64,000 nt of DNA from a virus (Duplodnaviria; Caudoviricetes), in the IMG/VR virus record IMGVR_UViG_2891785506_000002, positions 2,420-66,419 of that record; one strand, given 5' to 3'. Under the pieces are notes generated by a model. That model saw only the letters and a list, made by a program, of their open reading frames with translations, had not been told where the DNA came from and did not search any database. The position numbers and the translations under genes were made by a program. Numbering within the stretch: the stretch's first letter is position 1; each line of letters opens with the position of its first letter. Shown in pieces: positions 57,762 through 64,000 of the stretch.

Positions 57762-58819
57762 AAATTCTTACTCCCCTTTGATAAGATCAAATATCTTTAT
57801 TCAATTTATTTATTACACCACAAATATAACGTATATTTTATACAAATCAAAATATATAAATACTTACACACAATATATTATATGAATCAATTAAAGTATT
57901 ACTTCATATATATTTTTATACACGAAATGATACAAAACACGGAGAAAACAAAGTTGTTAATTTTCGTTTGGCAATGTAAACAATGATGACACTAAAAAAT
58001 AAGAAAAAAAATTTTTAGATGGGGTGAATAGCCCCGTTTCTCGTTATCTCGCAGGGGGGGGAGGGTACAGTATATTATATGTATAATATTCAAAATTAAA
58101 ATTATACACATATATGTACTAGCGTGTTATGTTTGCGCATTCGTGAATATTTTATGTACTTTTAGATATTTACAGGTGTTGTTTTAGACACTTTTTAGTC
58201 ACTTTGATAGACTGAAAACACATCGACGATAAAAGAGATTGAATCGAGGTAATCCATCCTTATATCTTCCTATATCATTATTCACGCCTTACATGCGTAT
58301 ATTATTGTTATACTCTTTGCATTGTGGAATGTTTGTAGATGTATTGCTTTATTATCCCGATGGAATGCTATAAATTACACATCTGATGCTGGCTATACAT
58401 TGTTGTGTATTATATTATCATTGTGTTATAATATTTGCCAAAAATAAGTGTTAAAATATCATTGATTTGGCATGTATGAAATAATTTAGAATGGTTCAAG
58501 ATAACCTTTCCCTCGTACGCTTAATTGTGTCGTGTTATAGGGCACTTATTACGAATGGTATCCGGTCTTATCTTTATAAAAATAGTGCGAATGGTGGTAT
58601 TTATTTGATTATACGTTTAAAATACGGTGTTATTGCATGGCATATATTTCTATACAACTGTATATCAATCAAATAACCATTAAAATATTTTGCTATTTTG
58701 CTACATTGTAGTATCTTTAAGTATAGAACAAAAGGAGATAACAAAATAGTTACTCTTTCGCCGGTCTTAAAGTTGTTCGCCGGTATATAAACAGGAAGCT
58801 TCGAACCGAATAAAGGTTG

Positions 58820-58883
58820 TATATCTTAATGCGGCTGCCATTGGTAACGGTTCCAAGCCCGTGATAACGCAGAGGAAGATATA
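58820..58883 (+). ncRNA. Twister ribozyme (type P1)
   Basis: P1 TATATCT/AGATATA, UAA, P2 TGCG/CGCA, P3 TGCC/GGTA, P4 ACGG/CCGT, L4 TTCCAAGC; pseudoknots TCC/GGA and GC/GC. Predicted cut U58827^A58828. Confidence 0.88.
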
Positions 58884-58949
58884 ATAAAAAAGGGGCAATG
58901 AAGCCCCGAACGTTACCGGCGTATTCCGGTAAACAAAATCCGTACTAAT

Positions 58950-59012
58950 ATGGAACTGACAATTTGTATTAGAGTTTGGAAAGTAAAGCTAACGATTAGC
59001 GTAAAGCTTTAA
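58950..59012 (+). CDS. 20-aa small ORF inside a long-range stem
   Basis: MELTICIRVWKVKLTISVKL; flanked by AAAATCCGT/ACGGATTTT. Confidence 0.4.
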   Translation: MELTICIRVWKVKLTISVKL

Positions 59013-59067
59013 TTCCAAAACCCCGGGTAAAACCGGGGACGGATTTTTGCAAATATACGAAATAATC

Positions 59068-59241
59068 ATGAAAACGTACACGAAAGCACAATTAATTAAA
59101 TCGGCTGTAAAAATGGGTTGCAATCCCTTGGAAGCCACCAATCGAATAAACAAAACTTATAACTATTACGTGACTTATAGAAGTGACTACAATTTGAAAA
59201 AAGCGGCTCATTATTGCATGTATATAGCACCTTGTAACTAA
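59068..59241 (+). CDS. Small hypothetical protein
   Basis: Likely start is ATG 59068 (MKTYTKAQLIK...). Confidence 0.55.
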   Translation: MKTYTKAQLIKSAVKMGCNPLEATNRINKTYNYYVTYRSDYNLKKAAHYCMYIAPCN

Positions 59242-59242
59242 T

Positions 59243-59286
59243 TCCCCGAACGGTTTACGCCCTTGGTTCGATTCCTGGGCGGGGAC
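59243..59286 (+). ncRNA. tRNA-minihelix-like element (acceptor-like stem + T-arm)
   Basis: TCCCCG/CGGGGA stem stacked on a stem with a TTCGATT loop. Confidence 0.45.
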
Positions 59287-59316
59287 AAATAATAATAACA
59301 ATTAAAATAAATAATC

Positions 59317-60486
59317 ATGAAACACTTTAAAAACATTAGCAGCATTGCGGAATTGAAAAAAGAGTATCGCAAACTAGCCCTAGCGAATCACCCGGACAAA
59401 GGAGGTAACACCGAGGTAATGCAAGAAATAAACGTTGAATTTGACGTACTTTTCAAGATCTGGAAAAACGAACCATCAAAAGATGATGAAGTAGAAACAG
59501 CAACGAGTGAAACAGCTAGCGAGTACCGGAGGAACTTTTACACGTCTAATGGTTGGGAAGGTAGCCGTTACGATTTTAGCTTAAGCACGAAAGACATTGC
59601 CGCCAGGGTAAGAGAATACGTTAAAATACAGTGGTCAGGATGGAAATTTAGCGTGCGTTGCAAATACGCGTCCATGTGTTCCGAAATCGTAGTTTATCTC
59701 AAGGGCGGACCGGTGGCAGATCCGCTATCTAGTGAAGGGAGAGAAAAAGGATATTATAACCCGCAAATCTCATACATGAAGGAAGAAGATAGTCGGTTAA
59801 ACGATCTAGTGAATGCCGTTATGCTGGACGTGAACGCCTATATAGACAGTTTCCGGTACGACGATAGCGACGGAATGATAGACTATTTCGATACCAATTT
59901 CTACAAGTTCGTTGAGGTCCGCTCGTCCGATTGGGAGGAAATACACAAAACAGCACGGGTGAAAGAAGCTAAAAAAGGGGTAATGGTTAGTGAGGATCAC
60001 GAGGAAGAAACGAACACGGTAACGGTTGAAGATATAGAAATCATCGATTACTCGGAAAAAGCGGTCGCTGTGTTTGGCAACACGAAAGCTATAAAAGAAG
60101 ATTTAAAACAGTTGGGAGGACGATTTAACCCGGCTTTGAAGTACGACGGCGGGAAGCGTGCCGGGTGGGTATTCTCGAAAAGTAAGCGCGAAGCACTGGT
60201 AAGCCTGTTAAAAGGGATTGACATGGACGAAAAGCCCAACGAGGGAAACGATATACAGTTAATTCCCAGCAGCCGAGAAGAACGCGCGAAAATGGATACC
60301 GTTGCTTTCACGGATTTTATCTCGTGTATTCAGAGAATAGCGATCGAAAACGGGTATTTACACGCTAGAAATCACGTGAAAGAAAAGCTAAAAAACTACT
60401 ATATGAAATTCGTGCAATTGAAATATATTGCCGTTATGCTGGCGGAATACAAGAAGAGGAGCAGTAATAACACGATGGCAGCTTAA
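59317..60486 (+). CDS. J-domain (DnaJ-like) multidomain 'polyvalent' protein
   Basis: ELKKEYRKLALANHPDKGG...MQEIN..F (J-domain with HPD); middle LPD29-like region (DIAARVR.YVK..W..WKFSVR); C-terminal YSEKAVAVFG.TK.IKE.LK.LGGRFN domain. Confidence 0.7.
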   Translation: MKHFKNISSIAELKKEYRKLALANHPDKGGNTEVMQEINVEFDVLFKIWKNEPSKDDEVETATSETASEYRRNFYTSNGWEGSRYDFSLSTKDIAARVREYVKIQWSGWKFSVRCKYASMCSEIVVYLKGGPVADPLSSEGREKGYYNPQISYMKEEDSRLNDLVNAVMLDVNAYIDSFRYDDSDGMIDYFDTNFYKFVEVRSSDWEEIHKTARVKEAKKGVMVSEDHEEETNTVTVEDIEIIDYSEKAVAVFGNTKAIKEDLKQLGGRFNPALKYDGGKRAGWVFSKSKREALVSLLKGIDMDEKPNEGNDIQLIPSSREERAKMDTVAFTDFISCIQRIAIENGYLHARNHVKEKLKNYYMKFVQLKYIAVMLAEYKKRSSNNTMAA

Positions 60487-60515
60487 TTTTAATAATAACC
60501 ACCCTTTGTTTGTAA

Positions 60516-60586
60516 GCCGTCCTGGCGGCATTAAATAGCTTTTAAGCCGGGAGCGTCCCGACCAGATTTGCCCGGTCGGGGGTAAG
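60516..60586 (+). ncRNA. Pistol ribozyme
   Basis: P1 GCCG/CGGC; loop TCCTGG pairs with CCGGGA (pseudoknot); conserved TTAAATAG and GCGT; P3 CCCGACC/GGTCGGG; P2 CTT/AAG. Predicted cut G60582^U60583. Confidence 0.88.
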
Positions 60587-60603
60587 AATTAAATTTTAAT
60601 ATC

Positions 60604-61566
60604 ATGGAAACAATTAAAGACACTGGAAATATAAATAGTGCTCTGTTTAACAATGGAGTGAGCGACCATACTATTATTGGTATGATAAATTCGGGGATGC
60701 TACCGGAAGAGATTAACGATATAGACGTTTTTAAGCGAGAATGGCGTAAAACATTCACGGGTAGTTTTTTGCTTAAATACCCGAGGTATTACGGGATAAT
60801 CAATACAATACGACGGATAGTTGGACGCCTCCCGGAATGGGATGATTTCACGAGGCAAAATATACGGGATATCTCGGAATACTTTAAAAATAATTGTTGC
60901 GGTAGTTCGGCACGGACATACACGGCTATGATCCGTTCCGTGCTGAATTATAACAGGGAAATAGCCAATATCCCGTGCAAAGATTTCGAGAACGAGTTAA
61001 GGGTGAAAAACGAGCCGCACGTGGCGATATACTTGACGGTGGACGAACTGTGCAAACTGGAAAGATTCAAGCCGGAAAACGAACGGGAAGAGGTTATTTT
61101 AGCGCAATTCCTTGTCGGATGTTATACCGGAGCCAGGCATTCGGATATCTTGTGCATGAACGAGGATAATATACAAGGAAAATATATAACCTACGTTAGC
61201 AAGAAAACGAAAATTCCGGCAACGATAGAACTGAAAAAAGGCCTTCCCAAGTTACTGGAAATAGCCGTTACCCGGGAGTATGCCGAATCTACTTTTAACG
61301 ACACGATAAAAGATATATGCCGGAAAGCGGGGATTGATAGTAAAGTGAAGGTTTTTAAAGCCGGGAAAAGCTTGACTGGGCACAAGTACCAGTTTGTTAG
61401 CAGCCACACTGCTAGACGGTCGTTTGCTTCCAATTTGGCAATTCTTGGAGTTCCCATCCGGGAAATACAATTGAGAATGGGTCATAGCAGTACAACCATG
61501 ACCGAGCGTTATATTTTGGCTCCGGTGAATAAATTACCCGAGTCAGCGAGAGAGTATTTCAAGTAA
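60604..61566 (+). CDS. Tyrosine recombinase (second, no arm-binding domain)
   Basis: YTGARHSD, KKTK, SSHTARRSFA, MGHSS..MTERY: R-K-H-R-H-Y catalytic set. Confidence 0.92.
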   Translation: METIKDTGNINSALFNNGVSDHTIIGMINSGMLPEEINDIDVFKREWRKTFTGSFLLKYPRYYGIINTIRRIVGRLPEWDDFTRQNIRDISEYFKNNCCGSSARTYTAMIRSVLNYNREIANIPCKDFENELRVKNEPHVAIYLTVDELCKLERFKPENEREEVILAQFLVGCYTGARHSDILCMNEDNIQGKYITYVSKKTKIPATIELKKGLPKLLEIAVTREYAESTFNDTIKDICRKAGIDSKVKVFKAGKSLTGHKYQFVSSHTARRSFASNLAILGVPIREIQLRMGHSSTTMTERYILAPVNKLPESAREYFK

Positions 61567-61598
61567 ATTATTAACTTTACAATTTAAATTTATAGAGT

Positions 61599-61739
61599 AT
61601 GCTAACGATTGGTGCGATAATATGGTTTATTATAATTCTGATCATTTTGGTAAACTTGATCGGGTGGGGTTCATTGATTTTCGTGGCTCTTTTTTTCTTG
61701 TTTTTCTTTATTAATTACAAAGGGAGGAAACAGGAATAA
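61599..61739 (+). CDS. Small hydrophobic membrane protein (46 aa)
   Basis: Manual translation MLTIGAIIWFIIILIILVNLIGWGSLIFVALFFLFFFINYKGRKQE. Confidence 0.45.
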   Translation: MLTIGAIIWFIIILIILVNLIGWGSLIFVALFFLFFFINYKGRKQE

Positions 61740-61885
61740 CTGTATTTCCCAAGAATCATTTTCTTGAGATAAATTCTATTTTATAAAATTTCATCCCCGA
61801 ATAAGTTCTATAATTCGGAATTATTTTGCGTATTTAGTGACAAAACTTACATATTGTTGAATAATATATTTAAGTATTATATATC

Positions 61886-61914
61886 TGCCCCGCTTTTGTA
61901 GCGGGGCTTTATTT
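61886..61914 (+). terminator. Intrinsic terminator
   Basis: GCCCCGC-TTTTGTA-GCGGGGC followed by TTTTATTTTT. Confidence 0.7.
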
Positions 61915-62054
61915 TTATACGTGGTTATTATTTGTATTGTGTATAAATAACAAATTTCCATGAAAATATTTTGATTTAATATATACTATTTCAAATAAAA
62001 GTTCTATATTTGCATTGTAGTTAAATCAATAGTAACAATCAAAAAATTAAAGCC

Positions 62055-62786: not shown

Positions 62787-62818
62787 AGCGGGATTATCCT
62801 CCCGCTTTATTTATTTTC
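62784..62818. terminator. Bidirectional terminator between HU and integrase
   Basis: AATAAAGCGGGA-TTATCC-TCCCGCTTTATT. Confidence 0.7.
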
Positions 62819-64000
62819 CACTTGATTCAAGCAATCAATCACTTTGCGATTATTTTCATCTATCTGCCTCGTGTCATACCTAGCATATATATCCGTTACA
62901 TCAAAACTGCCATGTCCCAACATTTCGGCAACATCTTCTTTACTTATGTGCAACAATTTACGAGCGATAGTAGCGTGCGTGTGCCGGGCATGATAAAGCT
63001 TCAATCCAGGTTCGCCAATAACCTTCCCGATAACCTTTAAATTAAAATTAACATTAGCATTAAAAGCGTGCGTGCTCCTGTATCTCTTGTAAAAACTAAA
63101 CATTCTCTCGTCATCCTTGTATTTCTCGATTAACTCTAAAAGTTCCGGTTGTAAGCCTATGTCATAGCGTTTCCCGGTCTTGTTTCTTTTGTACACGCAT
63201 CGGCTCCCTTTCTTTAACTCGTATAAATCAGAAGAATTTATACCGATAAGATAAAATGTAGCCATGAATACATCTTTAGCAATCTCTATCGATTCGCATT
63301 TCGCCTGGTAGTCGCGAATAGCACGCATTTGCTCTATCGTCAATGGCATTGTATCCGACATCTTTTTGGATTCAATCTTATATTTACGGAACGGGTAAAC
63401 CGATATTAATTCATCATCCAAGGCGTCATTGAAAATTTTACGAATATTTCTTAAATGCAAGGATCTAGTGTTTAAAGAAGGGCAATCCTTTTTCAGCCAC
63501 TTGTCAAACGCCTTAATCCATGGCACATTCATTTCCTCGAAAGTAAGATCCACTCCACCATATTCCACGACTTTTTTTAGGGTTTCCGTGTATATTTCCC
63601 GGGTTCTTTCATTGTCCATTAAATCCAGAGCATTACGATAATATTCAGCAAAAATAACTTTATGATTCTCTTCTTCTTTCTTTTCCCTGGAAGAATCTAA
63701 AATATATTTTTTAAGTTCCGTAACGTTCATAGTTTCAATTTTCCCGTTTTGTTCTAGTTGCAAGATGCAACTCTGGACCTTGTTCATCGAACGCAATAAA
63801 TCCGCATTAATCAAGGAGGCATTAGGATAAGTTTTTTTCACTTCCATTCCTATTTTCCCTTTTACCCACATATCCCTCGGGATAGAAATTCCCATCGCCA
63901 TAGCCGTGGTCTTCCGGTTGCATGTCAAACGAATAATAACAGGATAAGTATTATCCTTTCGCTTGCTTCTCTCGTCAATAGTCAATACTGCTGATGCCAT
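62807..64000 (-). CDS. int: Phage integrase (tyrosine recombinase with arm-binding domain)
   Basis: N-terminal arm-binding domain (DN.YPVIIRLT..RK), SAM-like middle, catalytic GIN..DL, RNKT, YHARHT.ATIA, LGH......TDIYA. Confidence 0.93.
   Translation of the reverse strand: MASAVLTIDERSKRKDNTYPVIIRLTCNRKTTAMAMGISIPRDMWVKGKIGMEVKKTYPNASLINADLLRSMNKVQSCILQLEQNGKIETMNVTELKKYILDSSREKKEEENHKVIFAEYYRNALDLMDNERTREIYTETLKKVVEYGGVDLTFEEMNVPWIKAFDKWLKKDCPSLNTRSLHLRNIRKIFNDALDDELISVYPFRKYKIESKKMSDTMPLTIEQMRAIRDYQAKCESIEIAKDVFMATFYLIGINSSDLYELKKGSRCVYKRNKTGKRYDIGLQPELLELIEKYKDDERMFSFYKRYRSTHAFNANVNFNLKVIGKVIGEPGLKLYHARHTHATIARKLLHISKEDVAEMLGHGSFDVTDIYARYDTRQIDENNRKVIDCLNQVENK

Follow-up and report, generated by a model that had tools for sequence, protein, structure and literature searches.

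A Predicted Pistol Ribozyme Between an LPD29/J-Domain Gene and a Tyrosine Recombinase Gene in a Bacteroidales Prophage

Introduction

What does a self-cleaving ribozyme do when it stands directly ahead of a recombinase gene in a prophage? The question is raised by a stretch of 64,000 nucleotides, here called the window, which makes up most of a 66.4-kb IMG/VR provirus record. The pistol class of self-cleaving ribozymes was reportedly described by Weinberg et al. in 2015. Pistols occur near bacteriophage genes, and one from Alistipes putredinis (Bacteroidales) was shown to cleave (Harris et al. 2015, PMC4604425). Furthermore, prophage hammerheads were found near integrase genes and were proposed to cut long transcripts into gene-length messages (Perreault et al. 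2011, PMC3088659). In our study, the likely answer was that a working-type pistol cuts the polycistronic RNA of an LPD29/J-domain gene and a recombinase gene, and that it is an exchangeable and dispensable cassette, not one dedicated to the recombinase.

Identity and Elements of the Pistol Ribozyme

The window was searched with cmscan against Rfam 15, a check that the original prediction had proposed. The sole match above its gathering score in the whole 64 kb was Pistol (RF02679), with 61.9 bits against a cut-off of 34.5, an E-value of 7.5e-09 and coverage of model positions 1-68 of 68. The complete pistol fold had been claimed, and every element listed for it was recovered by reading the sequence and in this full-length match. 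The claimed span, 60516-60603, corresponded to the ribozyme without its first model base, plus the leader of the downstream gene. The elements of the ribozyme were as follows:

60515-60587, + strand: pistol self-cleaving ribozyme, full length (Rfam RF02679 match)
60516-60529, + strand: P1 hairpin, GCCG at 60516-19 with CGGC at 60526-29 (sequence)
60520-60525, + strand: P1 loop UCCUGG, the 5' half of the pseudoknot (sequence)
60531-60538, + strand: conserved linker UUAAAUAG (sequence, Rfam model, conserved columns)
60547-60552, + strand: CCGGGA, the 3' half of the pseudoknot and partner of 60520-60525 (sequence)
60553-60556, + strand: core GCGU (sequence, Rfam consensus)
60556-60581, + strand: P3 hairpin UCCCGACC ... 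GGUCGGGG (sequence, Rfam model)
60582-60583, + strand: predicted cleavage site between G and U, the two-base P3-P2 junction (Rfam model position)

The pseudoknot UCCUGG/CCGGGA, which joins the P1 loop to the P2-P3 junction, comprised six pairs, one of them U.G, and the P3 strands (60556-63 and 60574-81) formed eight, namely seven Watson–Crick pairs and a closing U.G. P2 consisted of three pairs between CUU (60539-41) and AAG (60584-86), and the base of P1 carried an A.A mismatch in the Rfam alignment. The linker AAA, purine 32, G33-C41, G40 and G42, which mark the class, were conserved, partly as letters fixed by the search pattern. The core GCGU at 60553-56 was taken to be the counterpart of G40-C41-G42-U43 in env25 numbering. 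Its G, C and G were invariant in 66 other pistols; the search pattern fixed these letters, which the Rfam consensus also gives in upper case. In members of the class, exactly two nucleotides, usually GU, separate P3 from P2, and this junction was G60582-U60583 in the window. The cut was predicted between these two bases, 21 nt before the ATG at 60604 of an intact recombinase gene (PF00589 match and catalytic residues), exactly where it had been placed originally. A G/U cut at the P3-P2 junction matches the published site of the class (PMC4604425).

When the ribozyme was folded alone, the minimum free energy gave an uninformative z-score of -1.67, from a program that nests the pseudoknot helix and cannot draw the pseudoknot. 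With our own covariance model, R1, the window pistol scored 90.4 bits. Judged from its sequence, this RNA belongs to the pistol class in its canonical form, and self-cleavage is predicted.

Conservation and Covariation

The R1 model was built from the pistols of three orthologous loci and was searched against IMG/VR loci fetched by a loose pistol pattern, which gave 84 matches, 71 of them distinct. In the family alignment of the 71 distinct pistols, 97.4% of the cells were paired, compared with about 40% in slid-partner controls, and both sides had changed in 21 of the 23 pairs, including five of the six pseudoknot pairs; the alignment was fitted to R1, which favours pairing. Moreover, the window pistol agreed with all 22 columns that were at least 90% conserved in 66 viral pistols outside its own subgroup, several of these columns being fixed by the search pattern and the same letters being upper case in the Rfam consensus.

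Compensatory changes were also found among close relatives. A P1 pair differed between the window and L002, L041 and L239 (C-G to U-A), P3 was compensatorily changed in at least three positions between the window and its relatives (L002, L041), and the pseudoknot U.G of the window was C-G in the orthologous loci (L002-L004, L239). As the intact copies kept the conserved nucleotides and compensated the changes in their stems, purifying selection on activity is suggested, which, as far as comparison of sequences can tell, argues against mere drift.

Operon Setting and Transcription Unit

The ribozyme lies in a rightward operon near one end of the prophage. The following features surround it:

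58128-58135, + strand: TATGTTTG at the operon head, a candidate -7 promoter box of Bacteroidota type (TAnnTTTG motif match)
58823-58880, + strand: candidate twister-P1-like ribozyme, within the same operon (RF03160)
59317-60486, + strand: 389-aa LPD29 protein with a weak J-domain (PF18847, 45.2 bits; DnaJ, 25.6 bits, just under the cut-off)
60583-60603, + strand: predicted post-cleavage leader of the recombinase message, 21 nt (sequence)
60604-61566, + strand: 320-aa tyrosine recombinase (PF00589 Phage_integrase, 46.4 bits; phrog_1 integrase)
61887-61907, + strand: terminator-like hairpin with a T run, where the transcription unit probably ends (motif match only)
62807-64000, - strand: large convergent integrase at the prophage end (Arm-DNA-bind_5, SAM_5 and catalytic domains)

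The stop codon of the LPD29/J-domain gene was located 28 nt 5' of the ribozyme, and the spacer of 117 nt between this gene and the recombinase gene was mostly occupied by the pistol. On the + strand, TAnnTTTG occurred only once between 54157 and 62005, at 58128, with the next occurrence at 62005; the motif was not enriched in the window, which makes it weak promoter evidence. No Bacteroidota-type -7 box was found on the + strand from 58135 to 62005, and the single intrinsic-terminator-like site between the LPD29/J-domain gene and the recombinase gene was P3 itself. The evidence at the level of motifs fits transcription of the region between about 58.1 and 61.9 kb as a single RNA, which the ribozyme would cut.

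A promoter directly 5' of the ribozyme was also considered and was rejected, as the sigma-70-like match at 60467-60496 was no better than in shuffled sequence and TAnnTTTG did not occur there. When sequencing runs were searched for the window sequence, no RNA run was found, and one rat-gut DNA run matched with a small word share.

The twister-P1-like candidate, 1.7 kb upstream of the pistol, matched the full RF03160 model with 53.5 bits (E-value of 2.9e-10) and did not reach the gathering score of 67.2, so it is regarded as a candidate only. A 50-nt part of it had an 88% match in Phage Phass-1 (OQ749652.1).

In the related locus L002, the counterpart of the large integrase adjoined a tRNA gene, and the chromosomal flank encoded a DHDPS protein 100% identical to the Butyricimonas muris homologue. 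From this identity, the hosts of the phage group were assigned to Butyricimonas-like Odoribacteraceae (Bacteroidales).

The Tyrosine Recombinase and Its Leader

The catalytic residues R178, K201, H268, R271, H294 and Y303 of the recombinase were all present, and in the alignment they were invariant in 16 homologues. The start codon at 60604 and the first residues were conserved in the orthologues. In the search for a target of the enzyme, no convincing inverted repeats flanking an invertible segment were found within the window.

The leader from U60583 to C60603 contained only two G/C and was about 90% A/U, and the bases AAG(A) at its beginning also serve as the P2 3' strand. The stretch 60583-60620 was predicted to be unpaired when folded alone, and the leader had no Shine-Dalgarno sequence. 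Bacteroidota messages generally lack Shine-Dalgarno sequences, and an A/U-rich unstructured leader suits them. The original prediction had described the cleavage products as a short AU-rich leader with a 5'-OH and an upstream RNA with a structured 2',3'-cyclic-phosphate end, and these products are what would follow from the published pistol chemistry (PMC4604425).

Distribution Among Recombinase Orthologues and Other Relatives

A related-locus search of viral and genome contigs with the recombinase yielded zero relatives; the relatives described here were obtained by a search for homologous proteins, followed by collection of the contigs encoding them. Six recombinase orthologues with 79-100% identity were compared, and the pistol was present in three, absent in two and represented by its 3' half only in one:

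Window: recombinase 100%, pistol present
L239: recombinase identity 88%, pistol present
L002-4: recombinase identity 86%, pistol present
L237/L238: recombinase identity 85%, pistol absent, spacer of 40 nt
L005-L009: recombinase identity 80%, pistol absent, spacer of 54 nt and, across the upstream stop codon, a different hairpin
L240: recombinase identity 79%, only the 3' half of the pistol, at the contig start

In L002 and L239, the distance from the cut to the ATG was kept at 21-22 nt. Among more distant relatives with 41-62% identity (L010-L020, L241), no pistol was found. Since the 85% and 80% orthologues have no ribozyme, the pistol cannot be a requirement for expression of the recombinase.

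In two syntenic relatives of the window (L041:2101-2174 and L236:1592-1665, both on the - strand), the same pistol as in the window, together with its 5' flank of about 20 nt, UACCACCCCUGUUGUAAG, preceded an unrelated ORF of 132 aa by 47 nt. The 5' flank CCACCC(C)UxUUGUAAG was common to the window, L002, L239, L041 and L235 with very low divergence, and it might be part of a mobile unit or an alternative-pairing element. The pistol of L235 (L235:3480-3565) was decayed, with the 5' strand of P3 deleted and the cut-site G changed to A; the recombinase gene was gone and leader-like sequence remained. In addition, the ribozyme content varied between relatives, which had a twister only, a pistol only, both or none. 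For instance, L002 and L041 had the pistol and no twister match, and the pistol-less L005 had a twister-like match at L005:1915-1973. The link to the recombinase drawn in the original prediction was thus upheld as adjacency, but the special link that it implied was not, given the orthologues without a pistol and the same pistol before another gene.

Two further structures were observed at these loci. In L240:1-69, P3, the cut site and P2 were recognisable and the 5' half was unrelated in sequence; either this copy has been rearranged, or the end of the contig was assembled wrongly. At L005:3900-3946, and also in L006-L009 and L237, all without a pistol, a GC-rich hairpin (AACCGGGG...CCCCGGUU) overlapped the upstream stop codon, and it might serve in place of the structure that the ribozyme provides at the 3' end.

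Layout and Neighbours of Viral Pistols

Both flanks were available for 59 distinct viral pistols, and in these the ribozyme was located between co-directional ORFs. The gap between the ribozyme and the same-strand stop codon upstream of it had a median of 5 nt and was at most 10 nt in 41 of the 59, and the gap from the end of the ribozyme to the next start had a median of 42 nt; these spacers rest on raw ORFs of at least 40 codons, not on called genes. The shorter spacer was upstream in 43 cases versus downstream in 15 (sign test, p = 0.0003). The window pistol, with 28 nt upstream and 16 nt from the model end to the start, had the minority layout (15/58) and was within the observed range. The layout between co-directional ORFs is in agreement with intercistronic processing, which was proposed for prophage hammerheads (PMC3088659).

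Five IMG/VR loci (L052, L099, L093, L053 and L133) contained 2-5 pistols each in successive gaps between small genes, and these are arrays of the "punctuated operon" kind.

A general association of pistols with tyrosine recombinases was also considered. Among 39 ORFs downstream of viral pistols, PF00589 matches were obtained only for the window and its orthologue L002, by which such a link was rejected. No tyrosine recombinase followed any of the other viral pistols, about 35 in number, whose downstream ORF could be used, and a Mu-type transposase was found 128 nt downstream of the pistol at one other viral locus.

Proposed Mechanism and Alternative Explanations

In the reading that we prefer, the early or lysogeny-side rightward operon of the prophage would be transcribed into one RNA that starts at a promoter near 58130 and ends at a terminator near 61900. 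The nascent ribozyme would fold through P1, the pseudoknot, P3 and the 3-bp P2, and it would cut between G60582 and U60583. The LPD29/J-domain message would then carry the compactly folded ribozyme and a 2',3'-cyclic phosphate at its 3' end, and the recombinase message would begin with a 5'-OH and the unstructured A/U-rich leader of 21 nt. After the cut, the two cistrons could have separate fates. Self-cleavage would be constitutive, and the pistol would be a "punctuation" cassette of the phage group. The starting point of this reading is what was observed directly, namely the motif with its conservation and covariation, the arrangement of the genes and the patchy occurrence of the ribozyme. 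Co-transcription and cleavage in vivo are what we infer from these observations, together with any effect on stability or translation. The pistol may tune expression of the recombinase, or it may be a nearly neutral cassette.

An unlikely alternative is that an active pistol is a neutral or selfish passenger, which spreads and decays in a variable region and has no selected effect on the recombinase. Its patchy presence in recombinase orthologues of 79-100% identity would be in agreement with this, as would the cassette and its 5' flank of about 20 nt before the unrelated 132-aa ORF in L041 and L236, the P3 deletion and the cut-site change from G to A in the decayed L235 copy, and the different ribozyme content of relatives (twister only, pistol only, both or none). 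However, a passenger of this kind does not account well for the intact copies, in which the conserved nucleotides were all kept and the stem changes were compensated, or for the non-random positions of phage pistols, right behind stop codons.

It was also considered that, in this phage group, swappable pistol and twister cassettes determine how much of a second, non-integrase tyrosine recombinase is made, through detachment of its message from the upstream cistron and through the unstructured 5'-OH leader, which we regard as quite unlikely. If it were true, natural variants of the prophage that carry the pistol and those that lack it would have different recombinase levels and hence a different excision, resolution or lysogeny behaviour, and this would be the first biological role assigned to a pistol ribozyme.

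Cleavage might further be a required or regulated activation, which is very unlikely. In this reading, the folded ribozyme abuts the landing zone of the ribosome, and only the cut, which frees the leader from the 3-bp P2, would make the message both translatable and protected by its 5'-OH and so set the dose of the recombinase. The AUG is only 21 nt from the cut, the 3' strand of P2 provides the first bases of the leader, and the released leader was predicted to be unstructured. Moreover, the pistol is nearer to the start that follows it than to the stop that precedes it, as in a minority of viral pistols (15/58), and L002 and L239 keep the spacing of 21-22 nt. All of this would suit an activation, but the orthologues without a ribozyme have ordinary spacers of 40-54 nt, which indicates that translation can do without the pistol, and in L041 the distance from the same ribozyme to the next start is 47 nt. 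A ligand-binding or switch element was not seen either, and pistols were fast and constitutive in vitro (PMC4604425).

Finally, it is extremely improbable that the match arose by chance or is a dead copy incapable of cleavage, because the A.A mismatch at the P1 base and the short P2 are outweighed by an E-value of 7.5e-09 for the whole window with nearly twice the gathering score, by the presence of every conserved core position and by the compensated stem changes of the orthologues.

Comparison With Known Systems

Compared with the published pistol class (RF02679), the processing cassette proposed here had the same fold, conserved nucleotides, G/U junction and setting near phage genes in Bacteroidales. 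It differed from published pistols in its position in an Odoribacteraceae prophage with a tyrosine recombinase 21 nt downstream, and most pistols examined adjoin the upstream stop codon, unlike the window copy. Prophage hammerheads (PMC3088659) are similar in that the ribozyme lies between co-directional genes near integrases, with several per operon. However, the ribozyme class is different in the window, and its operon mixes a pistol with a twister-like candidate. The window pistol is a further example of a known ribozyme class in a known kind of context, and the locus adds no new class or architecture.

The Bacteroides phages LoVEphage (MW660583.1, L243) and BI-TP1 (PQ571265.1, L242), the latter from Bacteroides intestinalis, are temperate Bacteroidales phages of about 70 kb. 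At their lysogeny end, as in the window, a large convergent integrase follows a small tyrosine recombinase, which is about 40% identical to that of the window. In both phages, the small recombinase gene is 2 nt after a ParA-like gene without a ribozyme, whereas in the window its neighbour is the LPD29/J-domain gene, with the pistol between them. The ParA-like neighbour hints that the small recombinase may have an episomal, multimer-resolution or directionality role rather than one in integration.

Together with its close relatives, the window offers a natural comparison of near-identical prophage operons from Butyricimonas-like gut bacteria, in which the pistol is present, is absent, precedes another gene or has decayed. 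Given a cultivable lysogen, this set of natural variants would allow a direct test of the effect of cleavage on the fate of the downstream message.

Elsewhere in the window, 18 head-to-tail copies of a 27-nt unit were found at 1876-2559 on the + strand, inside the ORF at 1639-2655, where they would encode a 9-residue repeat in a 338-aa protein.
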